DNA from: a virus
IMG/VR virus record: IMGVR_UViG_3300045974_000102
Span: 1-64,000 of that record
DNA: 64,000 nucleotides
Strand: one strand, 5' to 3'
Position 1 is the first letter of the stretch; every line of letters starts with the position of its first letter. Shown here in pieces: positions 1 through 64,000 of this stretch. The notes below the pieces were generated by a model. The model saw nothing but the letters and a program-made list of their open reading frames with translations. It did not search any database and was not told where the DNA came from. The position numbers were made by a program, and so were the translations under genes.

Positions 1-280
1 TGTTAGTGGCGCTATGCTTGAACAAGGCATAACTATCTTTGATGGTGCATTAGAGTTTAGGATAGATGGATTCTATGGCACGAGACGTGCTGTTGATGCT
101 CCTAATCTACCTAAAAGTATATGTGACGCACTAAATGGTGTATTATATTATGATGATAGGCAAATTATTACTTGCATTACTACTAAGGATTATGATAAGC
201 TTAATCCTAGAATGGAACTGACGCTCAAGAGAGTGGCAGATACCCATCCTTTAGTTAATATAAAGAACTTAATAGGATGA
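1..280 (+). CDS. rusA: RusA-family Holliday junction resolvase (5' truncated)
   Basis: DAPNLPKSICDALNGVLYYDDRQI resembles the RusA D-x-D-N-x-x-K-x3-D-A-L...D-D-x-Q motif. The frame is open from position 2, so the real start probably lies upstream of the window. Confidence 0.8.
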   Translation, partial: VSGAMLEQGITIFDGALEFRIDGFYGTRRAVDAPNLPKSICDALNGVLYYDDRQIITCITTKDYDKLNPRMELTLKRVADTHPLVNIKNLIG

Positions 281-19634: not shown

Positions 19635-19661
19635 TTCAAACCTCCGTTAAGTAGCGATAAC

Positions 19662-21536: not shown

Positions 21537-21547
21537 ATAAGACCTTC

Positions 21548-22738: not shown

Positions 22739-22747
22739 ATGTTTTCC

Positions 22748-36926: not shown

Positions 36927-37300
36927 TATTGATCAAAGACCCCGCCTATATAGAAGTGATTAAGCGCATACATTTTTGGTGTTACTCCCATGTCATTAAC
37001 CTTTCCCATAATCTTAGCATTAAATCTTCCACCTGTATGCTGGACATATACTAGTTCACCAGCTTCATATTTATTGCCTGCCATATAGTCATGTTGTGAG
37101 CACGATATGATAGCCTCAACTGCTGGATTAAAAGTGCCTTCTCTTTCTAGCACAACAGTAAAAACACCATGACCATCATCTATACTTTTTATTATACCTC
37201 TACACTGCTGAGGAGTATTGGTTGTATCTGTTGTGCGATTAAGCATGTCAATGCCTAACTCACTTACATCATTAAATAATCCTGCTATATTACCAGACAT
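36926..37300 (-). CDS. Putative spike OB-fold protein (gp5/gpV N-terminal-like)
   Basis: RGIIKSIDD...YEAGELVYVQHTGG...KIMGKV resembles a spike OB-fold; follows the hub gene. Confidence 0.45.
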   Translation of the reverse strand: MSGNIAGLFNDVSELGIDMLNRTTDTTNTPQQCRGIIKSIDDGHGVFTVVLEREGTFNPAVEAIISCSQHDYMAGNKYEAGELVYVQHTGGRFNAKIMGKVNDMGVTPKMYALNHFYIGGVFDQ

Positions 37301-43300: not shown

Positions 43301-45525
43301 CCATTGAATGAGTTCTTAGCCATCTTATCTAGAATATCATTCTCACCATCAGCTAATGAATTAGTCTTTTCTCTTTCAATAATTTTCCCAACTCTTGCCT
43401 TAACTGCTTCATCTGATTGGGCGATAGCTACTACTCTACTAAGCCCCCAATAGGAGTCTTGCTGAGCTGCTTTATTAATATAGCGAGCATTGTAAATATA
43501 AGACTCTTTTGTTAAAGAAAGATTTACATCACTTAAACCTGGGTGTCCATCAAGTGAGGTAATAATAGAACTCTGCAGTGTAAGAACTTCTGTCAAGCAT
43601 AGTTTGGTGACACCATTTGCTATTATGTATCTGCCATCATAAGTTCCATAGTTTGGACCTCTATCATATTCTGGTCTATAGGTCTTTAATACTTTACTAA
43701 TAGTTTCTGAGTTAGTTGTCTTGAAGTTAATATCTACGTTAGTTTCGCCTGGTCCAACATACTGAGCTGTTGGAATAGACATGCCAATGATAGGTATCCA
43801 TGCAAAGTTGTTTTGATATGTTACAGCAAGACTATGTGCTTCTTCTTCAATAGTCGAGTCTACAATTAAATTTAATCTTCTGGACATTTCTTCAGCTTGT
43901 CCATTGCTAGCTTCAACTGCCTGATGAAACTTCTCTCTATCTATTTTATGGATTAGTAGAGATGAGTCTTCTGCGAACCATACGCGGTCTGGGTCATTAA
44001 GAATTTCTTCAACGAATAAGTTGTATGGGTGTATCGCATCTTCTAGGACAAGTGTCTTAGGAATAGTTGCATCTTTTTCGTCTTTAATAGTTGTCTTTAG
44101 AGACAAGTCTTTTAACTGTGATATTGTTCTTGCATTCTTATCATACTTATAATATTCAAGTCTTTCAAATGTATCACCGTTGAAATATGAGTTATAATTA
44201 AATAGTGAGAACTGGAATGTTGCGCCTAGTGAGCCTGGGTGTCCATCTAATGTGTAGACAGTATAAGAGTCCATTGTAACAGGAATATAGTCTGTGCCAG
44301 CATATGGACTTAGTATTACATGTCCTTCTCCTATCAACTTTCCAACTAAGTCAACTGATCTAATAAGATTAAATGGACAGTATGTATACTGCACAATAAT
44401 TCTCTTTAGTTCATTGTTGATAGCCTCTTCTCCACTGAATATTACGTTCATCTTTATTGCAAGTCTATTCGTAGAGTTAGAAATTGGCTTAGACTCTCTG
44501 CCTAATATAGGGACGCTATATGTTGTGCGCATTTGAGCAATAGTCACGTGTGTAGGAGGAACCTTAAGCCACACGTCGCCTATCTTAATTATTTCAGTTT
44601 CACTATCACATTTAGATAAGATCTCTTGTCTTCTAAGATCATCCGTGCCATAGAGTTTATTAAAGTCTCTTCTGGCTGTATCTCTCATTGCAATAACAGA
44701 CTGATTCTGTGGAGTTGTAGGCAGAGCTGCTGCATTTGCTACATCTGGATTTAGCTTTAGGAATGCTGCAAATCTTTGATTTAGGTATTGTGGAGTAATA
44801 CTATTTACTGCATCTGCCCATGCTGGATCTTTTGATGGAAGCAATGGTATAGCTTTGCCTATATCAACAAGCATAACATTTAACTCTCCTCGTTGATCTG
44901 TAGCTATACCATAATCGTTTACGAATGGGAGACCTGTTATTGCTGTTTGATCTTCAAATGCTACCTGAGCAGGAGTTATGGCTCCAGTGCCAAGACTGTC
45001 AGTTCTTAGCTTCTGGATATCTAATACCATATTAGGATTTTTAAAACCTTCTTGTAAAGTTTCATGTAGAAGTATAGTGCCTTCTACAGCTTTACCAACT
45101 TCTGGAACAGCATTACCTTTTGCATCTACACCAGCAAGGTTGCTATTAGTGGTTATATGGGCAAGAGCAACTTGTTCGCTGCTGCCATCTGTATAAACAA
45201 GTTCAAGTTGAGTGGGTCCAGTTGCTTTAACAAAAGATACTATCTTGCCAGGCTCAACACCTTTTACTTGTTTGCTGTTAACCATTACAGTAGGATATGT
45301 ATTTATATCTCCAGAGCGATAAGCTTGATATGTTGGTGTGTCGACCTTATATGCAGCATGCTGAGCTATTGTTGCCATTGATGCTTTTAAATTTTGCGCA
45401 GTTGTCCCATTACCTGACCAAGCTGATGTTGAGAACTTCTTTTTATTTTCATCTAAAAGGTTGTAATTCCACACATTAGCTGCTACGGAACTTACACCAT
45501 CATACGAACTTTTTAAAATTGCCAT
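37300..45525 (-). CDS. Giant baseplate hub / tail lysin with C-terminal lytic transglycosylase
   Basis: Hub-like LRTGMRIALRLGY...VFIGTI and GTLIIRGNSKIEPYD; C-terminal IECESSFN...IGLMQL...RYNG (SLT motifs); internal hydrophobic segments. Confidence 0.75.
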   Translation of the reverse strand: MAILKSSYDGVSSVAANVWNYNLLDENKKKFSTSAWSGNGTTAQNLKASMATIAQHAAYKVDTPTYQAYRSGDINTYPTVMVNSKQVKGVEPGKIVSFVKATGPTQLELVYTDGSSEQVALAHITTNSNLAGVDAKGNAVPEVGKAVEGTILLHETLQEGFKNPNMVLDIQKLRTDSLGTGAITPAQVAFEDQTAITGLPFVNDYGIATDQRGELNVMLVDIGKAIPLLPSKDPAWADAVNSITPQYLNQRFAAFLKLNPDVANAAALPTTPQNQSVIAMRDTARRDFNKLYGTDDLRRQEILSKCDSETEIIKIGDVWLKVPPTHVTIAQMRTTYSVPILGRESKPISNSTNRLAIKMNVIFSGEEAINNELKRIIVQYTYCPFNLIRSVDLVGKLIGEGHVILSPYAGTDYIPVTMDSYTVYTLDGHPGSLGATFQFSLFNYNSYFNGDTFERLEYYKYDKNARTISQLKDLSLKTTIKDEKDATIPKTLVLEDAIHPYNLFVEEILNDPDRVWFAEDSSLLIHKIDREKFHQAVEASNGQAEEMSRRLNLIVDSTIEEEAHSLAVTYQNNFAWIPIIGMSIPTAQYVGPGETNVDINFKTTNSETISKVLKTYRPEYDRGPNYGTYDGRYIIANGVTKLCLTEVLTLQSSIITSLDGHPGLSDVNLSLTKESYIYNARYINKAAQQDSYWGLSRVVAIAQSDEAVKARVGKIIEREKTNSLADGENDILDKMAKNSFNGIPPDLSVFKKATRAILSSYFLIADDPKTGIMGLIDSRAQLYSTVTDNRARTKYKQIAQLLALVTDVVSRKAGWNESKIFNNWKFFIRSTNPEWGGGNITFAEALAGGIYEDKLLLPESNVGVIKSLENWQINKMSRFADEEFAELPEYSSSYFTKNITSGLNTITKGQLLAMLDKTATAEQRMNAKVLLMALFKDAFEETWNQKQAFANDGRALYFYFEGDYREHAILRNYGKMTTQCKEYLATEGEDGVSGNWILEVDIKSERDISTNSSVRRWVALYVLLIRGVVEGTGTYGESVENQSEEEVPEGEVILEPELMKIKPWGGHRYFPWIDNFVAASMLDSATMGDWYVNYKVTNLYEFLDKIKTDVVDFVSPSMNTTVWKNVYARESFSAEEGATFKDLIDKDSPLSPIIANTMPTRLKDMNVNYVKDGKVVRDDERKESSLTKAMMDPKTIGWAGWARSIVEGRDRPPTSLTSTSMLTDCAYGRMNALRKEAEGFITSTYSARLYNNDKKQEQGDIVNVADGNSRGIAIKRADGRTVGPVSSTLVSDCHPIIKDNTKLGAPMPRYGTLMELQGQLGLLSRCPAAYYLSSMGYTDSIGAVSEYVFNAEGPIRDFNSTKFTLSPSDTLAPSGDVWINTFTKAGSSDPSNLNGLWKDTIDGMPGYQGSSIAEFESNTWRPMIDATQITSTGYGSDASATPTNAVDKAIYNYYKKDTTNLTEQAAAYSMSNDKPWTGGEVTNADMKSAANQSAENILKSMMPTDGLENAFPTYKLYVIKSDTSDYKYYSLDDYYDFRLVQDLMVIRDKNNPVHLLRCRIVIDPKYISTEIRPNQITSRNVFEGSSPYSPQNIKDTEEDTRIFSDGSAGIYGASVVPLRTGMRIALRLGYSTDPRMLDTVFIGTITSLSGNKDTYIYEIEAHGDGRELISAPSSRAENISGNNYADIISKILRSNPQVAHFGQIYGSFIERFGRSHISVMAMFKDSWKSGLIFGAGAGISATAAFLGPKQLFRYMALTAAGASIATLYKPLTHVPDIWTEEVMHKWWGKQGEHGYLSVLAGRIREIGCSFAGALYNNEKASLEIGQHFYKIFQSGNNPIDDNIYAPDIWNKLWHGVNFNINNKTTIWDVLQNIKRLYPNYALDVRPYGNRSTLFLGPAEWNYFRTDDPIQAMAPSLTSMSLLSTDMYAEGIREAIKNLGPKLNRYGEFAEGTKFFNAVAPFIPFQKHHMVSSFKDIIHNGIKATPDRGWNHITVQYAKNQKDVEDSDKVTEFCIDADIDPTYLIKKFESINWTDNEDVANQYAIGRLKEGAERLYGGTLIIRGNSKIEPYDKIYIADKVNKMYGWVEVETVIHKFDSEMGYTTHIVPNLVCSVNHDSYLSTAQVFKRIMFEHIGTIGVGGVLQAIGGYALGSMGVWVLAALAFIAGGAFLISQVIGSDEAKNRKANPDTAAMERREYEYVPMLAKEAMGFNAMVSAGEFGYFFGGLMHWLRGADEFIMSERMYSAEQRVLSRNAARAKFRAREILTNVKGFATTLAEKWAAHSRKSLIDQIATILKKESAEILGMSEIEIAKALEEATFGAGAESTVARNLLKKKNLMSDLAKALTTKPVAAAVEAEAGATITAMAKRSFGERLALSPFGTIIHAAPMKAGIAYLLLTCIEMIPQLFESMAIKSITKNNAIIVHPIWYRNSLLMQGMEGYKNNDAFMFGKGIIADYKKTIDNTLRQIGDYTSVNWTGISKLENPNRNVVNPLPGAMADMSPSEFKKAYPGTPLSLADLQAVPPGKGIEYIKWKLEQMNKKNQDIATPEVLFSWVLGAFNKYKNTTPLLDPLMIATTIECESSFNAHAKSSDIGLMQLSAGQDGSHGKEWVDKIIREMAQDADWIKTKTPAFPRSWEDLSDNHVKYAKWVIFAGVKHIAERAIDAETRYMGEYKGTDPWAKREVIHKLSYWRYNGMQCRGFDADNNPIPKGESSKQLKHNYDVEKNYAEKRYAVIKWCKEKA

Positions 45526-45537
45526 TATAACCTCTTG

Positions 45538-48500
45538 TTAGGAGTATCTATACATATCTTCTTTATAAGGATTTGAACCATCTTGGCGGGTATGAACTGT
45601 ATTATATCCTCTGGAGGATACAATGTTTCCTATTGTTGACATCGCTTCTCTGCTGTCTGTTAATAAGTTCATGCTCGTATTATAATTTGCTTTGGTCTGT
45701 AAAGTTCTCTGTGAACCCATTTGAGAGCGTGGTGCTTGGAACGCTGGATTGTTTACTGATGGTAAATCATTTGGATCTTCAATAGCTCCATCGTCTGTTG
45801 CTAAATTCCACATAGCTAAGCCTGCTAGTGCTGCAGCACCTGCCCCTATCATTCTTGGTAGTGTGACATGATCCTCAATAAACTTCCAAGCCTTATCAAC
45901 TCCAGCGAATTTCCTTGACGGTGGCACATAAGATCTTCTGAGCGTCTCAGCTACAGTCATTTCAATATTAGCATCTATAAGTTTAGACCTGTGCATGTGA
46001 TCCATTATAATTTTAGGTATATCTTCTTTATTAGTTTTACCAGTTTCAACTCTCTTAGCTAGCGAGTTAAGCATGCCGCCTATACTGTCAGATGTTCCAG
46101 CCCCAGCTCCTTCGTCAATACCCTTAGAGAGCATGTTAAGGAAGCCACCATTGAAACCAAGTGCTTCTGCTTCGTCTTTGCTAAACTGTGATGCTATAGT
46201 TGGTGTATTTTTGATTGCTCTCTGATACTCTGCGAATGCATCTTCTACCTTAGTTGTGGCACCTGAATATCTGTGAGCTACACCATACTCGTCGAAATTA
46301 AGCTCTCTGATATTATATGTTAGGTCAGCTAAGTGATTAGAGGCATTCCACATTTCTGTGCCTCTAACTGCATTTTCTGCCATCCATGATGTTCCACTCT
46401 TTCTTGCTGCTATAGCTGCATGAGCTAAGATGGGGCTCATCTCACCGCCAGAGTTTCTAAGTAGATTTACATAGCCTTCATCTGTAATATTGCCCATAGC
46501 TTTAAGCACATTATCCATAGTAGCCTCGACTCCATTGGGGCCAAGGATAGACTGTATATGCTTTGAACTAATAATGCTCTGCTCCCAGAACTTAGGGACA
46601 AATGTATGAATGAATGTTCTATATTTTGAGAATGTGTCTTCAGCTATTCTGCCATCTACAAGTCCTTCAAGGCCACCTTTCATCTGGAATGTCTGCGCAG
46701 AGAATGCACCTGTTAGGCCTTTAGTAAGCCATGCTGCTATACCAGTATTAACCTCAAGATGGGAGGCAGATTCGAACATTGCCTCAACTTCTTTATCTCC
46801 CATTTTTGCAAATGATTGGAATCTCATATCTGGGAATAGAGTGCCAATTGCACTTCTGTTTCCTGCTGCGTTCATAAAGTTAAAGACAGTCTTCTGGTTA
46901 CCATTAATTTCAGCAAGTCTTTCTGCTTTAGCTTTGCTGCCAAACAGTGTGAGTAATTGTATTTTATCACCGTCATGGTCAGCGTTCATAAGTAGTCTTT
47001 GTGCATGACCTAGTGCTAAGCTCTTGCCTTGTATCGGATTCTTTTGATCCCAGTCTGGGAAGATATTAGCTAGTGCCATACTCTTGGCGTAGATAGCAGG
47101 GTAACGTGTGACCATGCCAGTTAAGCCTTCTTTATCAATTATATTCATTGCCTCTTTGGAATAAAATCCACCACCACCATCTAAAAATTTATTTATATAC
47201 CATTCTAATTCTTTACCTTTAGCAATTTTAGCTTCTGCCATCATACTGCCTACTGTATGTAGTGTATCATTTTGCCAAGCAAATAGACTCTCTCTTGATT
47301 CTATTCCCGCCACATCTAAGTTCTGCTCAAAGAAGTTTCCTTCACCAAACCAGTCTCTAAGAACATCTTTTACTTCTACATTATTGCTTTCAGCTGCAGA
47401 CATTGCTTCAGATAACATTTCATCTATTGAAGCCGCATATGTTTCTTTTGAAACTTTAGTTACATTACCTATTGCGTAATGTAGGTCTTGAGCTTCTTGC
47501 CAATAGGATGCCTTATCTTCTACCATCTTTTCAAGCTTAGTTAATGGTGATGACTTCTCTGATAAGAAGTTTACATCTGGAGTATTCATACTATAATAAG
47601 CCCCAGGGACGTGTAGTGATGCTTCACGTAGGATGCCGCCCTTAGTTGAATGTCCATGAATATCTACAGCATATGCTAAAGCCTCTAGTCCACTTTTGCT
47701 TAATTCTCCTTGTGGTGAGTTAACTACATCATTAAGTAGCTCATGCACTTTCCATGAGAAGTCGCTCAATGCTACCTTATCTTCTTCAGGCATATAGTAG
47801 CCGCCTTTGAAGTAGTCATTGCCTGGTATAAAGACTTGTCTGTCATGTGCCTGTAGTAAGAAGCCGTTTGGATTATTGTTTGAAGATAAGAATGAATCCA
47901 AGAAATGTAGTGGATCCTGAATGTTTCTTCTGGCTTTATCGCCATATCCATAAGGTCCCATTATTTTCTTTAGCTCTTCAACATCAACTAACTTGGCATC
48001 TGTAAACGCAGATACATCTTCACCTGCAATAGACATCTCCATTAGGCGCTGTTGCTCCATAAGCCTTGGTGTGTCTATTATACTTCTTAGAGACAGTTCT
48101 TCCATGACACCAGGAGTGTCTCTTAGATACTGCATATCTCTAAATCCTATACGCATTGTGTTACTGCCTATGCCTTGCGCAAGAGATTCAGTCTCTTGTG
48201 GCGAGAAGCCAGTCGCAAGCCAGAAGTTTGTATCTAGACCCTCTAGCGCATGGTAATCATGCCCAAATTTACGTTCATAATTTAAAAAGCCTCTCTGGCG
48301 CATCTTATTATAGTTACGAGGACCTAGTCTATTTGTGGCATATTCTAGTCCTTCGAAAACTAACCTTTCAGTATTCCTGTGCGCTAGTATCTTAGCCTTT
48401 CCAGTTGTATTAAGCGCATTTAAGTCTTCAACAACTTTTTCTCCCATATAACCTAGGTCATCAAGTGACCCTATTGATGTATCCATTCCAGCATGCCTTT

Positions 48501-50883
48501 GCAAGCCAACTAGGTTTTGCACATCAAGAAATTGCTGCACAGGGTTATCGCTTATCTGAAACTGTAGTCCCTCAGTCTTTGCAATCTCACTGAGGTTAAG
48601 ATCGCCTGTGCGGTTGCCAGTAAGGTATTGTGAGAAGCGTGACGCTGCATCGCCTGTAAGAGTTAAATTATTGTCTAGAGCAAGTAAGTGTCCTCTTAGA
48701 GCATCTTGCATAAATGGTAGAGCTGCTCCTACATTCTTTCCAATAACTTCTGATGTCGGACCAGTACCGCCTTTCGGGCCATGAATAGCAAGTAATGCTT
48801 TCTCGTAATAGTTAAGAGACATTCTAAATTCATCTTTCCCAGGTGAGTACATCCTAGTGACAGCAGCACGCGTTGACTGGCCATGAGCTAAAAGCTTAGT
48901 TGTGTCTTCTATATATTTGCCGTGCAAGATCCAGCCATCATAGCCAAGCTCTTGGCGTAAAGCTCTAGACTCAAGAGTCCGTAAGATATCTTCTTCGTCT
49001 TGCTCAAACATTGCTTCTGCTCTCACTAAAGATTCTCTGCCTACAATTTCTTCGTCTTTAGCTATATCACCTGTGAGCTGTCTACCTACTCTATTGACTC
49101 CAATATGTGTGCCTTTTTTCATTGTTAACTTCTGAACATCTATGTCTCCAGCAGCTATCTTCTTATATACACTACCTATCGAGCCAACACGTCTTTCGCC
49201 AGATTTAGTTATATAGTTGACTTCAGCTTCCTCAGCATAGAAGTTTTCAAACTTTACTTTTTTATATGTACCATCTTCCTGCATTTCTTCTCTATATTCT
49301 AATTTTGGCACAGTAAGTCTCTTAATGAAATCATCTACATATATATTCTTTCCTCTCTTAACTGACAAATCTACCCATCTAGATACTTCAATAGCCTGGT
49401 CTGTTGTAGGGTCTAGTGTGCCTAATAGATTAAGATTTCCACCTAGTCTCATATGCTGTAGGTGTGGACTTTCCATGTAGTTATTTGTAAACATGCCTGG
49501 GTTATATCTTGCTTGTGTCGTGCCGAAGTAAGACGGCTTGTTACGGTTAGCGAATGATATTCCTTTAAATGCCTTATCGCCTTCTGCTTGGTAGATGCCA
49601 TATAGGTTTTCTCTAGCATTTGCCGATAAGTCTGCTACCTGCTTCTGCGGACCTACAAATCCGAAGTGTTTCTGTAGAAATGATTTAGTCTTTTGGAAGT
49701 TAGGGTTTACTGCCTTTGCTCCCATGGTCTTTGTTTTGAAGGTCATTAGGTCTGGGTTGCCACGGATACCTTCACCCATCCCATACAATAGTCTTTGGAT
49801 ATCAGGATTGAAAGCATCTTCCCCAGGACGGAATGAATGCAATTGCGATGTGCCCATAGCTACTGAGTCAATGCCTTTTAGATGTGCCTTATCGCTTAGC
49901 TTTAGTCTACCAAAGAATGTTGCTTCGAGCTCTGAGCCTGCTAGTGCTTCTGCTGCGGGATTAACACCTTGGATGTTCTGAGCTGTTTCAGTTGCGCCCT
50001 TTAATACTTTAGCAAGCATCCTTGCTAGATTGGTTTGAGAGCCAACAAGACCAGCCTGCTCTCCTATAGTAACGGCCATCATTTTCTCAATATCGCTCTT
50101 AGTAACGCCTTTGCCTTCTAGGCTCTTGTAATAGTCACGTGCCATGTCAAAGTCTAAGCTTCCAACAATACCACGCTTCTTTATATCCCTAAGTGACTCA
50201 AGGATATGAGTGTTAGGATCCATTACCTCAGCACCAAGACCTTTGGGTGTGTCTACTATATCGTATTTCCTTGAGTGCACCCATCTTGAATGTGTGCCTT
50301 CTTGTATCCTTGTCTCTACCCACGCTTTAGAGCTCTCATCGTATTTCGAGAAGGGCACATTAAGTTTATATCCGCCTACGTCTACGATAGCATTGGTGCC
50401 TTGGAAGCCTTCAAATCTTCCCTTGATACCTATACTCTCAAGTATACCCATAAGCTCCTGACCGATAGGGCTGCCCTCTTCATCAACTACCTCTTCTAGC
50501 TTATTGAAATACTGCTTACCAGCTCTTCCTTTAGATGCGCTTAGCTGTGCAGCATCAAGGTCATGTCTAATAAGTTCATACTTCTCAGCATTTTTACCAG
50601 CTAAGTCTTCTCTGAACTTATTTAGGATCTTGTTCCTTGGGTTAGCTTTCGCAGAGCCAGTAGACATTGCCTCATACATTCTATCAGCTACCTTAGCTGA
50701 TGTGCTTTTCTCAGCAGCAACTTTAGGATATATAAAGTTGACAGCCTTTGTGCCTACTTCCATAAACTTCTTTTTATCGTAAGCATAGAACCCAAGTGCT
50801 GCTGCACCTGTGCCTAGAATGCCAGCAGTCATTAGTGAGCCAAGAGTGCCTGAGTCTTCTTCATATGGGCTGTTCGGGGTCAT
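45538..50883 (-). CDS. Putative virion-packaged two-barrel RNA polymerase-like protein
   Basis: MVTRYPAIY...LMNADHDGDKIQL matches the beta-prime-type RxP...NADFDGD active-site motif; located in the tail module; Ala/Gly-rich hydrophobic segments at both termini. Confidence 0.65.
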   Translation of the reverse strand: MTPNSPYEEDSGTLGSLMTAGILGTGAAALGFYAYDKKKFMEVGTKAVNFIYPKVAAEKSTSAKVADRMYEAMSTGSAKANPRNKILNKFREDLAGKNAEKYELIRHDLDAAQLSASKGRAGKQYFNKLEEVVDEEGSPIGQELMGILESIGIKGRFEGFQGTNAIVDVGGYKLNVPFSKYDESSKAWVETRIQEGTHSRWVHSRKYDIVDTPKGLGAEVMDPNTHILESLRDIKKRGIVGSLDFDMARDYYKSLEGKGVTKSDIEKMMAVTIGEQAGLVGSQTNLARMLAKVLKGATETAQNIQGVNPAAEALAGSELEATFFGRLKLSDKAHLKGIDSVAMGTSQLHSFRPGEDAFNPDIQRLLYGMGEGIRGNPDLMTFKTKTMGAKAVNPNFQKTKSFLQKHFGFVGPQKQVADLSANARENLYGIYQAEGDKAFKGISFANRNKPSYFGTTQARYNPGMFTNNYMESPHLQHMRLGGNLNLLGTLDPTTDQAIEVSRWVDLSVKRGKNIYVDDFIKRLTVPKLEYREEMQEDGTYKKVKFENFYAEEAEVNYITKSGERRVGSIGSVYKKIAAGDIDVQKLTMKKGTHIGVNRVGRQLTGDIAKDEEIVGRESLVRAEAMFEQDEEDILRTLESRALRQELGYDGWILHGKYIEDTTKLLAHGQSTRAAVTRMYSPGKDEFRMSLNYYEKALLAIHGPKGGTGPTSEVIGKNVGAALPFMQDALRGHLLALDNNLTLTGDAASRFSQYLTGNRTGDLNLSEIAKTEGLQFQISDNPVQQFLDVQNLVGLQRHAGMDTSIGSLDDLGYMGEKVVEDLNALNTTGKAKILAHRNTERLVFEGLEYATNRLGPRNYNKMRQRGFLNYERKFGHDYHALEGLDTNFWLATGFSPQETESLAQGIGSNTMRIGFRDMQYLRDTPGVMEELSLRSIIDTPRLMEQQRLMEMSIAGEDVSAFTDAKLVDVEELKKIMGPYGYGDKARRNIQDPLHFLDSFLSSNNNPNGFLLQAHDRQVFIPGNDYFKGGYYMPEEDKVALSDFSWKVHELLNDVVNSPQGELSKSGLEALAYAVDIHGHSTKGGILREASLHVPGAYYSMNTPDVNFLSEKSSPLTKLEKMVEDKASYWQEAQDLHYAIGNVTKVSKETYAASIDEMLSEAMSAAESNNVEVKDVLRDWFGEGNFFEQNLDVAGIESRESLFAWQNDTLHTVGSMMAEAKIAKGKELEWYINKFLDGGGGFYSKEAMNIIDKEGLTGMVTRYPAIYAKSMALANIFPDWDQKNPIQGKSLALGHAQRLLMNADHDGDKIQLLTLFGSKAKAERLAEINGNQKTVFNFMNAAGNRSAIGTLFPDMRFQSFAKMGDKEVEAMFESASHLEVNTGIAAWLTKGLTGAFSAQTFQMKGGLEGLVDGRIAEDTFSKYRTFIHTFVPKFWEQSIISSKHIQSILGPNGVEATMDNVLKAMGNITDEGYVNLLRNSGGEMSPILAHAAIAARKSGTSWMAENAVRGTEMWNASNHLADLTYNIRELNFDEYGVAHRYSGATTKVEDAFAEYQRAIKNTPTIASQFSKDEAEALGFNGGFLNMLSKGIDEGAGAGTSDSIGGMLNSLAKRVETGKTNKEDIPKIIMDHMHRSKLIDANIEMTVAETLRRSYVPPSRKFAGVDKAWKFIEDHVTLPRMIGAGAAALAGLAMWNLATDDGAIEDPNDLPSVNNPAFQAPRSQMGSQRTLQTKANYNTSMNLLTDSREAMSTIGNIVSSRGYNTVHTRQDGSNPYKEDMYRYS

Positions 50884-50892
50884 AATATATCC

Positions 50893-53800
50893 TTAATATA
50901 AATACTGGAACTGTGATAGTAGAATACCACCATACTTATCGTATCTCTTTCTGACACGATGATCTTCTTCGTCTGTTGTCTCTTCTAAGTGCATCATAGC
51001 ATTAGGTGATGTTACTGGTGCGCCGTGTGATGATTGTATAACGTCATTCTGTGCTATATATGGCAGTATCTCTCCCGTCATGGTAGCACTTGTATTATGG
51101 ATAGAGTTTATGTCAATAGCTGATTGATAAGCTCCTGGGCTATAAACTGCTCTTACTAAGTGGTCATCGAAGAAGCCATAGTCTTCTATTTGTTCGCCCT
51201 GGTCTTTAAGTGCCAACACTTCTACTTTTTCAATGTCAACGTCAGGTGACCAGCCAAGCCAATCAGTCCCTGGAAGAGCATGACTATTAGAATACTGCTG
51301 AATAATCTTTGAGCGTGCCCAGTCGCCTCTTGTAATGCCAGTGCCATCAGTCTCGTGCATATACTGACGAATATCACTATCAGATAGATCGAAGGCTTCG
51401 TTTGCTTGTATCTCTGCAAATTCTTCTCTATCTCTTTCAGAACCTGCCTCTGCTAATCTCTTTGCCCATAGACCCTTATAAAGACGCTTAGATGCTTCTG
51501 GTAAGAACTTAAATATTTTGCCACGCTTCTCTGGACTGCTTTCATTTGCAAAGAAGTCAAAGTATGCTCTTTCGTTCTGTGGCAATGCTGTTAATTCATC
51601 ACGTAAGCTGTTATCTGTTGGATCTGCACCTATCATAGTAGAGCGCCACTTAGCATGGTAGAACTCTGCTTCTTGATAGTCGCCAGCGTCAGAAGATTGG
51701 TTAGCTAGCATCTTATATTTTAGATATTTGATTATATCCCAATACTGCTGCTTCTCTCTTCTTTCTGCTGTAAAGCTTGGTATAGTATCAATACCGAATA
51801 CGCGGTGTCCTATATTTGCTATCATAGGCTTTAATAGATGTTCGATAGGGTGCTGCCAAAGTCTTACTTCTTTACCAAATACTTGATAGTCTAAATAGTT
51901 AGTGAGATAGTCTCTATTAGGGATAAGTTTTCTATCCCAGAAGGTAGACTTATCTGTCATATTTTCCCAGTAGCCAGCGAGAAAAGTATTATAAGAGCCT
52001 ATCTTATCTTGCGCTAAGTTGTGCGAAGCTAGATTACCTGTATCTGCGAAAGGAGATCCTTCGTCCCACATATCTTCTTGCATGCCGCTCACATAAGCCT
52101 CAAGCCCTTTAGACATGTCTGGCATTGACTCTGGAGCAGCAACTTGCATATCTATTCTTTTGCCGGGCGATAGATGAGAAGCCATTGCGCTCATAGAAGA
52201 CTTCTGTATTTCTAAGGCGTCATTTGCTAATTGGCTTGTGTCATCATATCTAAACTTCTGAAGCAGTCTTGCTCTAATGTCCTGCACTCTATTGGATACG
52301 CCAGCCGCTCTATATGTAGTCTCATCTCCTTCAAGGCCAAACTCACCAGTTTCTAGGTCTGCCCAGTCTACTACACCTGAGCGATCTTCTGTCGCTATGC
52401 TCTGAGTATATTCTTGAGAATGTGCAAAGATCTGCTTCTTTAACTCACCAACTTGAGTTAATGTATCATAGTATCTCTGTTCTTCTGCAGGAGAAAGGTT
52501 GTTCCCTATTGCTAGCTGCAAAACGCTAGCTGATGTATTTCTAAATTCTGACGAGTATGGAGCTATCTGCTGTAAGATTTCAAGTCTAACTGGATCTGGA
52601 TACTCTTCTAAGTCCATTCCTTTAACTTCAGGAAACAAGAACTCCCAGCCTTTACGTGATGTCATTAACCAGCCCTGTGGAGCCTTATCAAATGTGGTGC
52701 CATGCGTATAGTCAATGCTTTGTTTGCTTCGCTCTGAGTTCCATATATCTTCTTCTCTTTGAGGTATCCAGTTAACACCAAATAGCTCATTTGGAAGATC
52801 GTTGATTGTCCACTTAGATCTCGGATTAGTAAACACACGACGTAAGAACTCGCCACCTATACCTGTAATATCTCCAGCTCTCCATCCCCACATGATCTGT
52901 GCTGGATCATACATTGCTGAAGCATCTGCTTTTCTTGGGACATAAGAATCAATACCCTTCTTCCCTGCAGCAAACTGATATAGAGAGCGGAACATGAAAC
53001 CTTTGAAACCAGAGTATTCAGTTCCTTGATCCCACATCTTAATCATATTCTGTCCGAATAGATTATCAGATCTCTTCATAGCCTCATAGAGCTGCGGTGT
53101 AGAGTCTATAGCAGAGTTGTTATGTTGAATATCTACAGCTAGCCTTAAGTTCTTAGCTACTGCTCTTTCATAGTATTGGTCGGCCTTATCATCTGGGATG
53201 CCTCCACCACCAAAGAAGTTAGGCTTTATGCCACGAGAGTCTAACTCATCAAATACTCTCTGCATTTCCGCAGATGGGTCATTGAAGTAGTTATCGGACC
53301 TTACGCGCAAGAAAGACCAGCCCTCTTGTTCAAGTTCCCTTTGTCTCTTAGCATCCTTAATCTTCTTCTTGCCACTATGGAAAGATACACCGTCAGCTTC
53401 AAGGGCAGCATATTTACTGCCATCTCTAATAACCATATCTATATAATAATTACCTTCATTTATCTGCGGGTAAACATCATAGCCCTGAGCCTTAAGTGAT
53501 TGATAAATCCCTCTTTCAAAAGGATTGCCTAATTCGCCTTCGCCTGGCTTATGGTATTCTTTCTGAGGTTTGATTACTCTACCTATTGTTGCAGCGATGA
53601 GTGGCCCGAGCAAAGGTATGTTCTGTCCATATTGGGATGATTTATATACCGGTTGTGATTCAGCGTGGTAGTCCTCTAGCATGTATCTATCGAATAGGCC
53701 GAACGTAAATGAGTTGAGTAGTCTATGTCCATAGCTCGGATAGATAACTCCCTTGTTTTGCCAGTCAGACTGTATAAGATTTAATGCCTCTCTTCTGTAT

Positions 53801-56800
53801 TGGATTACTTTGCCACCCTGATATGGCGTTGGCGATAAAATCCATCCTCTATTTTTTCTTACTTCAATATCTCTATTGCCATTAATAATAGCCTTACGTT
53901 CTTCATAAGTTTTATTAGAGCCTAAGAAGCCAGGTAGAAATGGGATCATAGGGGCCATTAAGAGGCCAAATGCTGCAGTCTTTGGGTTTTGTATTAGCCA
54001 ATTGAATGCTCTTTGAGAGCCAGTCTTAGTAACAGCGCCTACAAACTTCTCTGGCCTTAGAGCTTGTCTAAGCCATGGAGCAACTTGTATATTAGATTTA
54101 AGTAGATCTCTACCTACTTTATCAAAAGATCTTCTAATATAAGATGGGCCTGTCTTATATAAGTGTTGAGCAAATAAAACTGTAGTAGCTGCACTAATAG
54201 CTGGAGCTAAAACACCTAGACCTGTAGATCCTGGAGCAGCTTGCTCTTGACGCTTTGCCATCCTCGTTAAGCCAAGAATATCTGATATCTTAGAATATGC
54301 TAGCTGAGCTTTGTGATAAGCAGCTATAGGAAGCCCTGTAAGCGGTCCTGAGCCTTTATCAAACGTTAAGGCACCTAACATATGGTTTGCTAAATCAAAT
54401 GCCTTGTAGGCCGCATATGCTGGCAGAATACGCTTAATGCCAATGTCCATGAAGTAGCGAGGAATGCCACCCTTCATATCATATACAGGTAGGCCTAAGT
54501 GTGGCGCATTGATAAATTCAAGAGCACGACCAGCCATAGTGTAGATTGGGTTATGAGACTTAGTGAGCTTGTCTATTGTCTTGCCCATGAATTTGTTGTC
54601 AACAAATAGAACCTCGAATGGAGTTTCAAGGAACTGGTTCATAGGGTTAATAGTTATTTCTCTAAAAGCCTTGCCCCAGTGGCGAGCCATTTGATGGATG
54701 CCTTCTTTGCTCCATCTCTTTGCGCCACGGTAGCTCTGAACAAGAAGTGCTGTGTCTGCATCTCTTGTCATTTTGCCCATGTTCTTATAGAGTAAGTTAG
54801 TGCCGCCACCAATGCCTTTAGGTAGCATGTCAAGGTGCCATTTAACTGTCTCAATTGCTTTCCATATAGGTTGGAAAGTTGGGTTGCGTTTCATGAAGTC
54901 AGATTTTCTTGCTGTCTTTAAATACTCATCTAGTGGTATCTTATAGGATGCTCCTGATCTGACCAAAGATTCTTGAACTCTACCAAATACAATTGGGTTA
55001 ACTTGTCTAGTAAACTCTCCAGTTGCTCTATTAAAACTATTAACATTCTTGGCGCTAGCTGTTCTTAATTTAGATATATTAAGGTTTACATCAAGGACAA
55101 ACTTGCGTCCCATTCTATCACCATTAAGACTTTGATTTATAGCGTTAGATGCTTCGTCAAATTCTTGATACCATATTACTGCTGCACCATTAGGTTGTGT
55201 GCTTATCTTAATTATGTTCTTCTTAACCTTATCTGGTATTCTAGTAGGCTTAAGTATTTCAGATATTTCATCAAAGACTTCTGGGTTAGTATCTTGTATA
55301 GAGGCTAGTAGGTCATCAACAGCAATGCCATGATCATGTAAGCCTCTGATCCTCCCGCCGTTGATAGTAGAAAATCTTTTCCATTTACCACTAAGTTGTC
55401 CAGTTGCTTCATCAACATCACCTATAAATCTCTGTGACCCTCTACCCATATATTCGTGCATAGATGAAACGCGAAAGAGTCTGAATGTTGGCACAGCAGC
55501 TTCTATTTTTCTTGCGCCATAAAGCATAGTGCGGCCAAGCATTGTCATTGCTTCGCCAAGATTTGTTGGTATAACTTTAGACTTATGTGCCCCAAGTAAG
55601 TTTGGGTCATGTAACATTGCCGAGAAACCTACTGACCATAATGATAAGCCTGCTGTGAAGCCAAGTGCGCCAAGTCTGCCTACCATAGTAAGTGCACTAG
55701 CGCCGTCTGCTTCATTACCAGATGAATAAGTTTTATATTCATTAGATATACCAGTCTTGTTAAAGCTCATACTACTGCTTGAAAGCTTTTGTTTCTTATC
55801 TCCACCACCAAAATAAGTAGCTGCACCAAGTAATGCAAAGACACCAGCTAAGCTTGAATATTGAGCTATCTTAGTTGCAGCTCTATTGTGCTCCATGAAG
55901 TTCATGGCGTTGTGAAAAAATCCACCGCCTCCACCTCCTGCACCTCCACCTCCACCAAACATGGAAGGTGTAAAGCCACCTGACTTAGATGCATATATAG
56001 AAGAGAACCCTTTCTTTATACTGCTTGTTCTTTTGTCTATTAGACCTAGCATTTGTTGAGTAAGCTCTGAGACACTATAGCCTTGCTTCTGAGTTTCACG
56101 CTCCATAACATTTTGGAAAGCCTGATGTAAGAACTGGCCACCAATATCAGATCGTAATACCTTATCTATACCATGTTTTAATTCGTCTCCATGATTGCCT
56201 TTTGTGAGCGAGTTCTTAAACTCATCCATAACATCACCAAAGGCAGCTTTTAGTGCAACCTCAAGGCGTGTATCAGCACCAGCTACGTGTAATTCTTTTC
56301 CATTAAAAAATGGCTTAACTTTACTATGCCAGGAGAATAGATTTGCTACATCTTCAACCTTCCAAAATATAGCGTGTTGGAATTCTTCAAAAGTATTAGG
56401 CGCTCGCGCTATTCTGCCTGCAGTCTCTTTAAAGGCGATTGGGTTAATATTAATTGTTAACCGCTCCATGATATTTCTATCTTCTTTAGCAAGTCTGAAA
56501 GCTAATAGTTGCCAATCATGTTCAGCACCTATAAAATTAATTTTCCCTGCTTCATATAAACCTTTAAATCTTTCATAAGCTTTTTTATCTCGCTTAGCAA
56601 GCTGAACAAGCATTGCTGGAATATCGAAGTCTGTATTCCAGGTCATTATATTTTTAACCTTGCCAGCGGTAGCATCATTCATTAGATTATCTAAAACATT
56701 AAACAAGCCTTGCTTCTCTGCTTTATTATAAAAAGCTTCTTGTGTCATAGATTTCATTTCAATGTTGCCGTTCAATCCTTCAAGAAGGGCTTGAACCTGG

Positions 56801-57348
56801 GCATCTGTTTGATTAAATATACCAAGTGACATGTCTGATATATTTAAGTATTTATCACCTACAGGTATTACGTTGTTAGTTATTAGGGCTCTGTTAATCT
56901 CTCTGGGACCAAGCACTTCCATAGCATAGTGCACTTGTCTATCACTTAACCCCTTCCCTGCTATATCCTTTTTAGTTAGATAATTATAAAGGCCTTCATG
57001 TGTTTGCGTCTGTATTCTTGACTTTTTAACATTAGTGCGTTGGCCGCGTATCATCTTGAATTCTTCTACGTGGCCTTGACTGTGGACATTTAGATCTCTT
57101 ATTGAGTGAGGATTGGTTACTTGGATATGATGGATAGTGTCGCTTAAACCTGGTTCCATATAAGCCATTTGCAATAGCTCCATATGTCCATGTGAAAGCA
57201 AAATTTCATCTGCTGATGGCAATGCCCTTCTACCATCTTGCATCTTCGATAAATTATAGAAGAAGAAATTTAAATGATTAGTTTCGATATCTATAAACAT
57301 CGAGATGTCTTTTAGATATTTAGTGTAATCATTATTAGAAGCTGCCAT
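50893..57348 (-). CDS. Tape-measure-position giant protein with N-terminal DEDDh-like exonuclease and internal Vsr/DUF559-like endonuclease
   Basis: Follows two chaperones; motifs FIDIET, WNTDFD and HVAGAD; internal PFERGIYQSL...YYIDMVI...ALEADGVSFH...DAKRQRELEQEGWSFLRV; several TM-like segments. Confidence 0.7.
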   Translation of the reverse strand: MAASNNDYTKYLKDISMFIDIETNHLNFFFYNLSKMQDGRRALPSADEILLSHGHMELLQMAYMEPGLSDTIHHIQVTNPHSIRDLNVHSQGHVEEFKMIRGQRTNVKKSRIQTQTHEGLYNYLTKKDIAGKGLSDRQVHYAMEVLGPREINRALITNNVIPVGDKYLNISDMSLGIFNQTDAQVQALLEGLNGNIEMKSMTQEAFYNKAEKQGLFNVLDNLMNDATAGKVKNIMTWNTDFDIPAMLVQLAKRDKKAYERFKGLYEAGKINFIGAEHDWQLLAFRLAKEDRNIMERLTININPIAFKETAGRIARAPNTFEEFQHAIFWKVEDVANLFSWHSKVKPFFNGKELHVAGADTRLEVALKAAFGDVMDEFKNSLTKGNHGDELKHGIDKVLRSDIGGQFLHQAFQNVMERETQKQGYSVSELTQQMLGLIDKRTSSIKKGFSSIYASKSGGFTPSMFGGGGGAGGGGGGFFHNAMNFMEHNRAATKIAQYSSLAGVFALLGAATYFGGGDKKQKLSSSSMSFNKTGISNEYKTYSSGNEADGASALTMVGRLGALGFTAGLSLWSVGFSAMLHDPNLLGAHKSKVIPTNLGEAMTMLGRTMLYGARKIEAAVPTFRLFRVSSMHEYMGRGSQRFIGDVDEATGQLSGKWKRFSTINGGRIRGLHDHGIAVDDLLASIQDTNPEVFDEISEILKPTRIPDKVKKNIIKISTQPNGAAVIWYQEFDEASNAINQSLNGDRMGRKFVLDVNLNISKLRTASAKNVNSFNRATGEFTRQVNPIVFGRVQESLVRSGASYKIPLDEYLKTARKSDFMKRNPTFQPIWKAIETVKWHLDMLPKGIGGGTNLLYKNMGKMTRDADTALLVQSYRGAKRWSKEGIHQMARHWGKAFREITINPMNQFLETPFEVLFVDNKFMGKTIDKLTKSHNPIYTMAGRALEFINAPHLGLPVYDMKGGIPRYFMDIGIKRILPAYAAYKAFDLANHMLGALTFDKGSGPLTGLPIAAYHKAQLAYSKISDILGLTRMAKRQEQAAPGSTGLGVLAPAISAATTVLFAQHLYKTGPSYIRRSFDKVGRDLLKSNIQVAPWLRQALRPEKFVGAVTKTGSQRAFNWLIQNPKTAAFGLLMAPMIPFLPGFLGSNKTYEERKAIINGNRDIEVRKNRGWILSPTPYQGGKVIQYRREALNLIQSDWQNKGVIYPSYGHRLLNSFTFGLFDRYMLEDYHAESQPVYKSSQYGQNIPLLGPLIAATIGRVIKPQKEYHKPGEGELGNPFERGIYQSLKAQGYDVYPQINEGNYYIDMVIRDGSKYAALEADGVSFHSGKKKIKDAKRQRELEQEGWSFLRVRSDNYFNDPSAEMQRVFDELDSRGIKPNFFGGGGIPDDKADQYYERAVAKNLRLAVDIQHNNSAIDSTPQLYEAMKRSDNLFGQNMIKMWDQGTEYSGFKGFMFRSLYQFAAGKKGIDSYVPRKADASAMYDPAQIMWGWRAGDITGIGGEFLRRVFTNPRSKWTINDLPNELFGVNWIPQREEDIWNSERSKQSIDYTHGTTFDKAPQGWLMTSRKGWEFLFPEVKGMDLEEYPDPVRLEILQQIAPYSSEFRNTSASVLQLAIGNNLSPAEEQRYYDTLTQVGELKKQIFAHSQEYTQSIATEDRSGVVDWADLETGEFGLEGDETTYRAAGVSNRVQDIRARLLQKFRYDDTSQLANDALEIQKSSMSAMASHLSPGKRIDMQVAAPESMPDMSKGLEAYVSGMQEDMWDEGSPFADTGNLASHNLAQDKIGSYNTFLAGYWENMTDKSTFWDRKLIPNRDYLTNYLDYQVFGKEVRLWQHPIEHLLKPMIANIGHRVFGIDTIPSFTAERREKQQYWDIIKYLKYKMLANQSSDAGDYQEAEFYHAKWRSTMIGADPTDNSLRDELTALPQNERAYFDFFANESSPEKRGKIFKFLPEASKRLYKGLWAKRLAEAGSERDREEFAEIQANEAFDLSDSDIRQYMHETDGTGITRGDWARSKIIQQYSNSHALPGTDWLGWSPDVDIEKVEVLALKDQGEQIEDYGFFDDHLVRAVYSPGAYQSAIDINSIHNTSATMTGEILPYIAQNDVIQSSHGAPVTSPNAMMHLEETTDEEDHRVRKRYDKYGGILLSQFQYLY

Positions 57349-62049: not shown

Positions 62050-64000
62050 TTAGGCCCCAGCGGTCACATTTCTGTCGATTACAGCCTCAATGTCTACTTG
62101 TGTCAATTCTTCCGGTGGGTTAAGCGATGTTTTTAGGAAGAACTTACCAATAGCTTTTTGAGATTCGATAATCTGCAGATCGAATGTGTAGCCGTTTAGA
62201 AGGCCTTTATTTACATCAAGGCCGAAGCTTTCAGCTAGTTTTGTTTTAGCAGCTTCGTAGTAGTATCTGTTAACAGCCTTACCAATGAAGCCAGCGAGAA
62301 GAGCGCGTTTGCCCTCGATTACAGTCTTGATAATTCTTGTAGTAGAGATTAGGTAGTAAGCTGACTGATCTCTTGCTACAGAGTTACCATTGTTAATTAC
62401 CCAGCCAAGACCGTGCTCACGAGTAACTACAATGTAGCCCTTAGCTGCTAGGTCCGAATACCACTTGCGATTGACAATAACGCTAACAGTAACATTAGAA
62501 TTAACACCAATCTTGCTGAATGAGATACCTTCATTCTTAGGCTTGCCAGCTAGCATACCAAGAGCATAAATACCACATGCATCAATGTATGATTTACCAG
62601 AAGCTCTATTAGTGAAGGTAAGTAGACCAGCACCAACAAGAAGGAATTTGCCAAGGTCTACAGTATTATTGTAGGTATCATAGATGACATCGCCATCAAT
62701 GAAGCCTTGGTCAGTCATTAGAAGTCCCCATGCAGGATCAGAGTAAGAGCCATTTATTGGATCACTCATACCACAGCGGTTGAATGCTGTAGAGCCAGAC
62801 AGTGAAGGTTCACCAAGTAATCCTGTTCCATCGCTTGCAAGAGATAGAATTGTATTGTCAAGTCCTGCCACATACACAGGTGTAGGAGCTTTACCAATCC
62901 AGTTTACAATGCCTGATCTTGTGAACCCAGCTGCTGTAACTGTGTCGATATCTGCATTCATGCCACAAAGTGGAGTGTTATAACCAATTGTTGCTTGATT
63001 GCAGAAGTTAGCGAACATATAGCCAAAGTGTGCAAGATAGTATCCTGGCAGTTTGACATCAGACCATGCACTGAATTCAATATGGTCACCCATATCATAT
63101 TCTTTGATGTATCCAAGGCCAAGTTGGAATGGCTGTGTGCCGGTAAATGTAGTCGAGACAGTTGTCCCGATGAAAGCACCACCAATAACTTTAGTAGCCA
63201 CTACAGCGGCACCAGAAGTAAATGGTGCACCAGATGCCATGTAGTATGAGAATGGCACGCCTACTGAACTATTTAGCGGACTAACAATATTAACTACATT
63301 GCCAGTTGCATCAACTGCTTTATACTTGATGGTATAGCCAGAGACTGATAGATAGCCTTCTGCCTTGATATCCGCCTGTGTAAAGCCGCCAGATGCAGTA
63401 AGTGTAAGCTGAGTAATACCAGAGGCACTGATAGGAGTTGTGAATACTGGCTTCTTAACGGTAAGTTGATAATCAGCAACTTGGTATACAGTCTTAGAAG
63501 TATAAGAGTGCACGTCGTTACCAGCAGTTGTCATTATAGAGACTGTGCCTGCAGCGGGCCAATCATCAGCAGCGTCTACGTTAAGTATAGAGGCTGATGT
63601 GGTATCACTTACAAGTGTAGTTGCTCTTGTGGTATTGCCAGTATAGCTATATGTTTCGTTATAAGCGACACCAGCCGGAATGATATAGTCAGGTGTATAT
63701 TGTTCAAGATCTGCTAGAGCATTACGGAAATACTTGTAATAGGCTCTATAGTCTGCCGATGATGGTGTTGAGCCGACTGCACATTCACTATCAGAAGCAG
63801 TTACAGATAGACCGAATGCGCTCTGTGAGTATGCTGTTAGTGTTGTTAGTGTTGTTGCAAGTGGATCACTATCAAGATCTATACCGGTGATTGTGCCAGT
63901 GCCAGCTAGTGTTGCAGTTACAGTGAAGTAACCACCATCTATACCTCTTAGTGAGTCGTAAACTTTCTGCTTGTTCTTATCCCAGATTTTAACGCCTCTG
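62050..64000 (-). CDS. Tail sheath protein (5' end beyond window)
   Basis: C-terminal YYLISTTRII...FIGK...LNPPEELTQVDI is a sheath-like end. The frame has no stop codon from 63534 to the window edge. Confidence 0.85.
   Translation of the reverse strand, partial: RGVKIWDKNKQKVYDSLRGIDGGYFTVTATLAGTGTITGIDLDSDPLATTLTTLTAYSQSAFGLSVTASDSECAVGSTPSSADYRAYYKYFRNALADLEQYTPDYIIPAGVAYNETYSYTGNTTRATTLVSDTTSASILNVDAADDWPAAGTVSIMTTAGNDVHSYTSKTVYQVADYQLTVKKPVFTTPISASGITQLTLTASGGFTQADIKAEGYLSVSGYTIKYKAVDATGNVVNIVSPLNSSVGVPFSYYMASGAPFTSGAAVVATKVIGGAFIGTTVSTTFTGTQPFQLGLGYIKEYDMGDHIEFSAWSDVKLPGYYLAHFGYMFANFCNQATIGYNTPLCGMNADIDTVTAAGFTRSGIVNWIGKAPTPVYVAGLDNTILSLASDGTGLLGEPSLSGSTAFNRCGMSDPINGSYSDPAWGLLMTDQGFIDGDVIYDTYNNTVDLGKFLLVGAGLLTFTNRASGKSYIDACGIYALGMLAGKPKNEGISFSKIGVNSNVTVSVIVNRKWYSDLAAKGYIVVTREHGLGWVINNGNSVARDQSAYYLISTTRIIKTVIEGKRALLAGFIGKAVNRYYYEAAKTKLAESFGLDVNKGLLNGYTFDLQIIESQKAIGKFFLKTSLNPPEELTQVDIEAVIDRNVTAGA

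Follow-up and report, generated by a model that had tools for sequence, protein, structure and literature searches.

The exonuclease motifs of a giant tail-region gene

A 64,000-nucleotide stretch of viral DNA (hereafter, the window), i.e., positions 1 to 64,000 of the 115,882-bp IMG/VR virus record IMGVR_UViG_3300045974_000102, encodes on its minus strand a giant protein, termed P0001 here, which is predicted to begin with a DEDDh (DnaQ-like) 3′–5′ exonuclease domain. The record is ~56% complete according to CheckV and encodes the contractile tail of a large phage, which is uncultured. From its N-terminus onward, P0001 consists of the exonuclease domain, a helical stretch, a Gly-rich linker, hydrophobic segments, and a body belonging to the gp145 family of phage tail-region proteins. 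The ATG at 57348, with GGGGAG located 8–13 nt upstream, is a plausible start site of the gene. The features on which the analysis centers are as follows, with the basis of each in brackets:

50893..57348, minus strand: whole P0001 gene, a 6,456-nt open reading frame (ORF) encoding 2,151 residues (ORF list and translation)
56149..57348, minus strand: predicted DEDDh (DnaQ-like) 3′–5′ exonuclease domain, residues 1 to ~400 (AlphaFold2 model and structural matches)
57280..57297, minus strand: ExoI motif FIDIET, residues 18–23 (D20, E22), in the first β-strand (17–23) (translation and model)
56620..56643, minus strand: ExoII motif TWNTDFDI, residues 236–243 (N238, D242; NxxFD at 238–242), at the start of helix 239–253 (translation and model)
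56269..56292, minus strand: ExoIII motif LHVAGADT, residues 353–360 (H354, D359; HxAxxD at 354–359), at the start of helix 356–383 (translation and model)

The original prediction, made from the letters of the window without database searches, claimed that these three motifs occur in the order typical of DnaQ/RNase T-type nucleases, with long insertions between them. All three are indeed in frame within ORF 50893–57348 and in that order; the coordinates first assigned to them marked the right positions, yet were 3–6 bases off. The insertions are real as well, with 222 residues separating ExoI from ExoII and 112–117 separating ExoII from ExoIII, compared to ~91 and 59–64, respectively, in the E. 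coli DNA polymerase III (Pol III) epsilon subunit. The Hx4D pattern of ExoIII contains a His rather than a Tyr, which assigns the domain to the "h" subclass of the DEDD exonucleases. An ordered triad of this kind arises in 0.3% of the shuffles of the 464-residue N-terminus (58 of 20,000), and in 48 of 3,000 when the entire P0001 sequence is shuffled, suggesting that chance alone is an unlikely origin; this shuffle result is suggestive and not decisive by itself.

The conservation of the motifs was examined in relatives of P0001. An exhaustive phmmer search of 1.84 billion representative sequences with residues 1–464 matched 19 proteins; in nearly all of these, which measure ~1,950–2,100 residues, the match begins at the protein's own N-terminus. 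When the C-terminal part served as the query of a word-based search, 42 clusters were retrieved, which share the same architecture down to 36% identity, and six additional full-length genes were taken from IMG/VR contigs. Forty-four proteins were aligned, and the 42 full-length members were kept, i.e., P0001 and 41 homologues of ~1,940–2,275 residues, while a 1,183-residue fragment (P0032) and a distant 1,321-residue protein (P0045) were set aside. The original prediction would have been undermined by a lack of conservation of the catalytic residues in homologues; instead, the set D-E-(D/E)-H-D is kept in every full-length member. D20, E22, H354, and D359 are invariant (42/42), position 242 is Asp in 37 members and Glu in the other five, and N238 is Asn in 41 of the 42. 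These residues are held while the exonuclease domain as a whole shows only ~20–45% identity among members, far below the conservation of the remaining protein. In several members, ExoI reads D[FLI]ETTGL, which is the classical DnaQ wording. The exonuclease is thus carried by all 42 full-length relatives found, which come from contigs of up to ~400 kb. A tblastn search of 50,697 phage records with the N-terminus returned nothing, and no relatives of P0001 were found among 185,579 prokaryote genomes, which leaves no prophage or host hint.

Predicted fold of the N-terminal domain

An AlphaFold2 model of residues 1–464 was built from a 20-sequence alignment. The model has a mean predicted local distance difference test score (pLDDT) of 87.1 and a predicted template modeling score of 0.88, with pLDDT falling below 50 from residue 453. 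In an exhaustive structural alignment (VIA) against 48,161 PDB representatives, the 50 best rows are all DEDD exonucleases (50/50). Among these matches are the following:

Pol III epsilon (1j53_A): Z 11.1, root-mean-square deviation 2.9 Å, 167 of 174 residues aligned
DinG exonuclease: Z 11.0
ExoI (1fxx): Z 10.9
RNase T (3ngy): Z 10.8
TREX1 (5yws): Z 10.4
CBASS Cap18 (7t2s): Z 10.4
RB69 polymerase exonuclease: Z 10.4
Cas2-DEDDh (8fyc): Z 9.7

The alignment to epsilon places residues 15..372 of the model on 7..180 of the chain, such that D20, E22, H354, and D359 fall on D12, E14, H162, and D167, respectively, by register, with the E. coli protein sequence taken from the genome. ExoI lies in the first strand of the model, ExoII at the start of the helix that follows strand 232–236, and ExoIII where the last long helix begins. 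The likeness to DnaQ-like DEDDh enzymes consists of a predicted RNase H-like core (Z 9.7–11.1 over ~160–200 aligned residues) with DxE, NxxFD, and Hx4D in their canonical places.

Several differences from these enzymes are equally clear. Relative to epsilon, the model contains three insertions, at residues ~24–57, 78–214 (hairpins and helices), and 297–350, the largest of which, with ~137 residues, separates strand 3 from helix A. The P0001 domain escapes detection by hidden Markov model (HMM) and profile methods, and is fused to ~1,700 residues of a phage tail-module protein. It also possesses an extra near-invariant residue outside the five canonical DEDDh positions, E276 (56519–56521), where the helix that follows the fifth core strand begins; among the 44 aligned proteins, this position is Glu in 40, Asp in three, and Ala in one.

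The proposal that the N-terminus adopts a DEDDh (DnaQ/RNase T-type) fold is borne out by the model, by the uniformly DEDD matches, and by the conserved residues; the absence of an RNase H-like fold would have spoken against it, and such a core is what the model and its structural alignment predict. By its modeled fold and active-site pattern, the region from residue 1 to ~400 is a genuine, very diverged DEDDh 3′–5′ exonuclease. A search of the ESM Atlas yielded unnamed clusters and weak LPD38/LPD39 leads.

The carrier protein and its polymerase-like neighbor

The original prediction had placed the exonuclease on the protein in the tape-measure position, which proved to be one gene off. In tblastn searches against cultured phages, the C-terminal part of P0001 matches gp35 of Acinetobacter phage ME3, gp031 and gp033 of Bacillus phage KLEB27-3, two other Bacillus jumbo phages, and a Moorella phage. 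BLASTP of P0001 gives E values of 4e-12, 5e-8, and 5e-6 to gp145 of Bacillus phage 0305phi8-36, 1e-15, 7e-13, and 2e-10 to ME3 gp35, and 2e-9 and 2e-12 to KLEB27-3 gp031 and gp033, respectively. According to its annotation, gp145 was identified in virions by mass spectrometry, and ME3 gp35 is annotated as a virion structural protein; KLEB27-3 gp031 and gp033 likewise bear virion or structural annotations. In the cultured phages, the genes run in the order sheath, tube, two tail chaperones, gp145-type gene, giant gene, and a gp27-like hub with wall-degrading domains, and the tape measure of 0305phi8-36 has been assigned to the giant gene ORF146, rather than to ORF145 (Hardies et al., PMC2147016). 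A conserved order, i.e., sheath, chaperone-sized genes, the P0001 gene, a giant gene, and the hub, is found in the window and in six further IMG/VR loci, which were retrieved using the full-length alignment of the P0001 family. Because the order is the same in the window, the related loci, and the cultured phages, the carrier is the gene that precedes the tape-measure slot, corresponding to ORF145 and ME3 gp35 by body homology and synteny. A tape-measure identity of P0001 itself is rejected by the synteny with 0305phi8-36 and ME3, as a 1,781-residue ORF (45538–50883) lies between P0001 and the hub and occupies that slot; no tape-measure family in Pfam or PHROGs matches P0001.

The homology to the cultured proteins is confined to residues ~920–2070. 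Their N-terminal regions are unrelated to that of P0001 and lack DEDDh motifs, and an HMM of the exonuclease domain detects nothing in gp145, gp146, ME3 gp35 and gp36, or KLEB27-3 gp031–gp034. The exonuclease is thus a module specific to the uncultured clade, carried on a scaffold whose N-terminus varies between lineages. What P0001 shares with gp145, ME3 gp35, and KLEB27-3 gp031 and gp033 is the homologous body and the same slot after the tail chaperones and before the tape-measure-slot gene and the gp27-like hub; apart from their N-termini, these proteins also differ from P0001 in lacking its Vsr-like insert (see below).

The surrounding genes and the remaining parts of P0001 are as follows:

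62050–63534: sheath-like gene
34881–36086: Baseplate_J gene
37300–45525: gene for a 2,741-residue protein with endolysin/SLT-like matches
45538..50883, minus strand: adjacent downstream gene for the 1,781-residue protein in the tape-measure slot (ORF list; slot by synteny)
46966–47106, minus strand: RxP...DxDGD loop of the 1,781-residue protein, residues 1260–1306 (orthologue alignment)
55921..55956, minus strand: Gly-rich linker, residues 465–476, joining the exonuclease module to the remainder of P0001 (translation; low pLDDT from residue 453)
55612..55869, minus strand: two moderately hydrophobic segments, residues 494–512 and 550–579 (Kyte–Doolittle scan)
53920..54225, minus strand: two stronger hydrophobic segments within the body, residues 1042–1060 and 1125–1143 (Kyte–Doolittle scan)
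51139..54591, minus strand: conserved body, residues ~920–2070 (tblastn, and BLASTP to gp145, ME3 gp35, and KLEB27-3 gp031 and gp033)
53227..53535, minus strand: inserted Vsr-like (MTES_1575/DUF559) endonuclease, residues 1272–1374 (PF18741, E 3e-22)
51997..52395, minus strand: staphylococcal nuclease (SNase)/Tudor-SN-like OB-fold domain, residues ~1652–1784 (VIA: 2wac_B, Z 8.5; 3bdl_A, Z 8.1; 1sta_A, Z 7.2)

The 2,741-residue protein occupies the position of the 0305phi8-36 gp147/ME3 gp37 hub (gp27-like, with wall-degrading domains); it matches endolysin-like PHROGs (phrog_20474, E 3e-35) and, weakly, SLT.

The 1,781-residue neighbor contains a loop, RxP...DxDGD, with ~37 residues between its two parts, which we take to resemble the magnesium loop of two-barrel RNA polymerases, i.e., the motif of the β′ chain. 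R1260, P1262, D1302, D1304, G1305, and D1306 are invariant in 6/6 orthologues at ~23% overall identity, and a profile of this family gives a match to a phage RNA polymerase β′ chain in the PDB which is non-significant (E 0.6) and falls at the same place as the loop. The exonuclease triad is absent from this protein. Its best-conserved part is the C-terminal ~100 residues, as expected for a tape-measure end.

A related arrangement is seen in gp034 of KLEB27-3 (OM634661.1; locus coordinates 17103–24407), a tape-measure-slot protein of this cultured 216-kb Bacillus phage, which is annotated as a structural protein. Inspection by eye finds DTE at residues 96–98, NFD at ~270, and HFGLSD at 351–356, followed by RYP...DYDGD at ~1930, and the protein gives a sub-threshold PF00623 match (E 0.015). 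At the motif level, gp034 would thus combine an exonuclease-like triad with a polymerase-like loop in a single chain. As in P0001 and its neighbor, both elements belong to the tail-lumen gene block of a large myovirus; in KLEB27-3, both are on a single protein in the tape-measure slot, whereas here the gp145-family protein encoded one gene earlier bears the exonuclease. Between the two exonuclease modules, no sequence similarity is detectable. A YonO-like RNA polymerase has also been reported for 0305phi8-36 as ABS83659.1 (PMC7824862). We rejected this protein as the tape-measure gene of that phage, as the accession offset corresponds to ORF101 rather than ORF146.

Within P0001, the segments at residues 494–512 and 550–579 are candidate membrane-inserting helices, and T511 and Y512 at the end of the first are invariant in the family. 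The motifs APGSTG and PFLPG, which flank the two stronger segments of the body, are likewise invariant; the body as a whole is strongly conserved and contains numerous invariant residues. A second model, covering residues 880–2079, has a pLDDT of 71.5 and is mostly helical, with two recognizable small domains. The Vsr-like domain matches 3hrl_A (Z 11.4), the homing endonuclease I-Bth0305I (Z 10.9), and Vsr (Z 8.7) by VIA, and is found by Pfam in only 2/42 members, namely P0001 and its closest relative, P0002 (55% identical). This domain sits in frame between Gly-containing linkers, and has the look of a domain that entered a structural gene recently and may be mobile. The SNase-like domain shows the pattern V..vD..TG.F...(R/K)LAGVS, in which the catalytic pattern is partly kept; its Ser stands where SNase has the calcium-binding Asp. 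This domain is kept across the family and is also present in 0305phi8-36 gp145 and KLEB27-3 gp033, whereas ME3 gp35 lacks it.

A role at genome entry and its alternatives

As the tail-region protein P0001 begins with a DnaQ-type exonuclease, an enzyme that trims nucleic acids is probably carried in the phage particle, and its gene lies beside that of an RNA-polymerase-like giant protein. We have good confidence that P0001 belongs to the particle by virtue of its gp145-type body, because this body is homologous to gp145. The domain itself is very probably an active two-metal 3′–5′ exonuclease. D20, E22, D242, and D359 are predicted to hold two metal ions, with H354 serving as the general base, and nucleotides would be removed from a free 3′ end.

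The best overall explanation, which we consider somewhat probable, is a virion-borne exonuclease that acts at genome entry, likely together with the polymerase-like neighbor. The exonuclease would be built into the particle via the gp145-type body and delivered to the host envelope or cytoplasm at infection, where it would act as the genome enters, along with the adjacent polymerase-like protein of the tape-measure slot. Its targets may be the 3′ ends of the entering DNA, or those of RNA. Both the injection of a nuclease and its partnership with the polymerase-like protein had been suggested in the original prediction, and both are plausible. The joint action at entry, taken by itself, is a tentative reading by analogy, proposed because the two genes are adjacent here, because the corresponding motifs occur on a single chain in KLEB27-3, and because P23-45 offers a precedent.

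In the Thermus siphovirus P23-45, the tape measure gp96 is also a working virion RNA polymerase, which transcribes the pre-early genes (Chaban et al. 2024, PMC10770324). The two cases are alike in that a giant tail-module protein, presumed to exit via the tail, bears an enzyme acting on nucleic acids; in our case, the DxDGD giant is the immediate neighbor of the exonuclease carrier. The differences are that the P23-45 enzyme is an RNA polymerase and that activity and delivery have been shown there, whereas here both are predicted. The P23-45 paper mentions no nuclease (PMC10770324).

A number of observations weigh against the proposed role at entry. First, the domain is poorly visible to sequence and structure comparison. 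It has no Pfam match at E ≤ 1 and no match in PHROGs or NCBIfam, and PF00929 (RNase_T) finds nothing in the record at E ≤ 10, while control genomes are positive. Searches of PDB sequences with the N-terminus, by phmmer and by family profile, return nothing, and hhalign does not recognize E. coli DnaQ when given the family profile. Foldseek against PDB and BFVD gives weak rows (E > 0.05), which are enriched in exonuclease domains, and the clustering of the carboxylates is supported by alignment register and secondary-structure position, not by distances. That PF00929 fails reflects how far the sequence has diverged, and does not speak against the fold; annotation libraries in current use overlook this DEDDh family altogether. 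Second, the cultured homologues of P0001 lack the exonuclease, and the clade that bears it has no cultured member; the homology from which presence in the virion is argued is one of the body alone, and a folded ~45-kDa domain would not fit the tail-tube lumen. Third, the clade exonuclease profile neither detects nor aligns to the N-terminus of KLEB27-3 gp034, and the exonuclease modules of P0001 and gp034 may be independent acquisitions. 0305phi8-36 ORF146 and ME3 gp36 contain neither DxDGD nor the exonuclease triad, so the content of this slot varies between lineages that share a gp145-type neighbor.

An alternative is that the exonuclease is an injected anti-host weapon, degrading the DNA or RNA of the host to shut it off, to supply nucleotides, or to counter its defenses, independently of the neighbor, with the Vsr-like domain as a helper in P0001 and P0002. 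The conserved catalytic site would suit such a weapon, as would the second, intact-looking nuclease on the same chain (PF18741, E 3e-22; Z 11.4 to 3hrl), since an endonuclease and a 3′–5′ exonuclease make a sensible DNA-destroying pair. Multi-domain injected effectors have also been described among virion genes as polyvalent proteins (Iyer et al. 2017, PMC5512222). P0001 resembles these in being a very long chain among virion genes that combines DEDDh, Vsr-like, and SNase-like modules. However, of its three nuclease-like folds, one is present in 2/42 members and one is without the full catalytic pattern, the greater part of the chain is taken up by a conserved structural body, and the phage examples of polyvalent proteins are head/portal (MuF)-linked. 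In addition, the survey mentions neither DEDD/DnaQ domains nor tape-measure contexts (PMC5512222). An endonuclease found in so few members cannot explain an exonuclease that is conserved in all, and the location of the triad, adjoining an RNA-polymerase-like motif here and on the same chain in KLEB27-3 gp034, points to a more specific job. We regard the anti-host reading as unlikely. A related suggestion of the original prediction, the degradation of signaling oligonucleotides, was set aside as unlikely for the cyclic ones, because DEDDh enzymes need a free 3′ end, which cyclic signaling nucleotides do not have.

A stronger version of the partnership with the polymerase-like neighbor can also be considered, in which an RNA polymerase delivered by way of the tail has the exonuclease as its obligate partner. 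In this version, the gp145-like and polymerase-like proteins would leave the tail together, and the exonuclease would resect the 3′ strand at the entry pore to expose a template, or edit the 3′ ends of nascent RNA, such that transcription starts without the host enzyme. The exonuclease could then have moved between two adjacent carrier genes in different lineages, as only co-delivery would matter. This version is speculative, and we assign it a low probability.

The domain may instead be a genome-end pilot that holds or trims the 3′ end of the phage DNA leaving the tail, either protecting this end against host nucleases or exposing single strands in terminal repeats for annealing and circularization; 0305phi8-36-type genomes have long terminal repeats. 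Its counterparts in role, though not in fold, would be Mu N and 80alpha gp44, the latter being an ejection protein that binds genome ends (PMC7290940). The tail-module location of the gene fits this picture, and the conserved SNase/OB-like domain of the body could bind nucleic acid. However, a purely protective binder would not need five invariant catalytic residues, and the cultured relatives manage without an exonuclease domain on gp145; we consider the pilot quite improbable. Finally, it is very improbable that the domain serves structure or assembly without catalysis, or that particles of this clade do not contain the gene product. In favor of such a reading, sequence methods do not recognize the domain, the clade is known from sequence alone, and the family is variable in its first ~900 residues. 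Against it, all 42 members keep D-E-(D/E)-H-D although their overall identity is low, as is typical of active enzymes, the fold is confidently predicted, and the gene is fixed in place among tail genes.

Enzymes carried in virions include the RNA polymerases of N4 and crAss-like phages and T4 Alt. To our knowledge, few such particle-carried phage enzymes are known, and they decide the first seconds of infection. For the virion-borne exonuclease favored here, the fold and chemistry are already known, and an enzyme-bearing tail-lumen protein has one published precedent, that of P23-45. Our search of the literature for a virion or tape-measure exonuclease found nothing relevant, and none of the papers that could be searched describes a virion protein of the tail region with a DEDDh exonuclease as a conserved module. 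If true, a conserved exonuclease in a tail-module virion protein would constitute a new class of delivered enzyme. Because the exonuclease is encoded beside, or fused to, a polymerase-like protein, the finding suggests that a small set of tools for processing nucleic acids travels with large contractile-tailed phages, and the gp145-type giant tail proteins, long unexplained, would gain a testable function.

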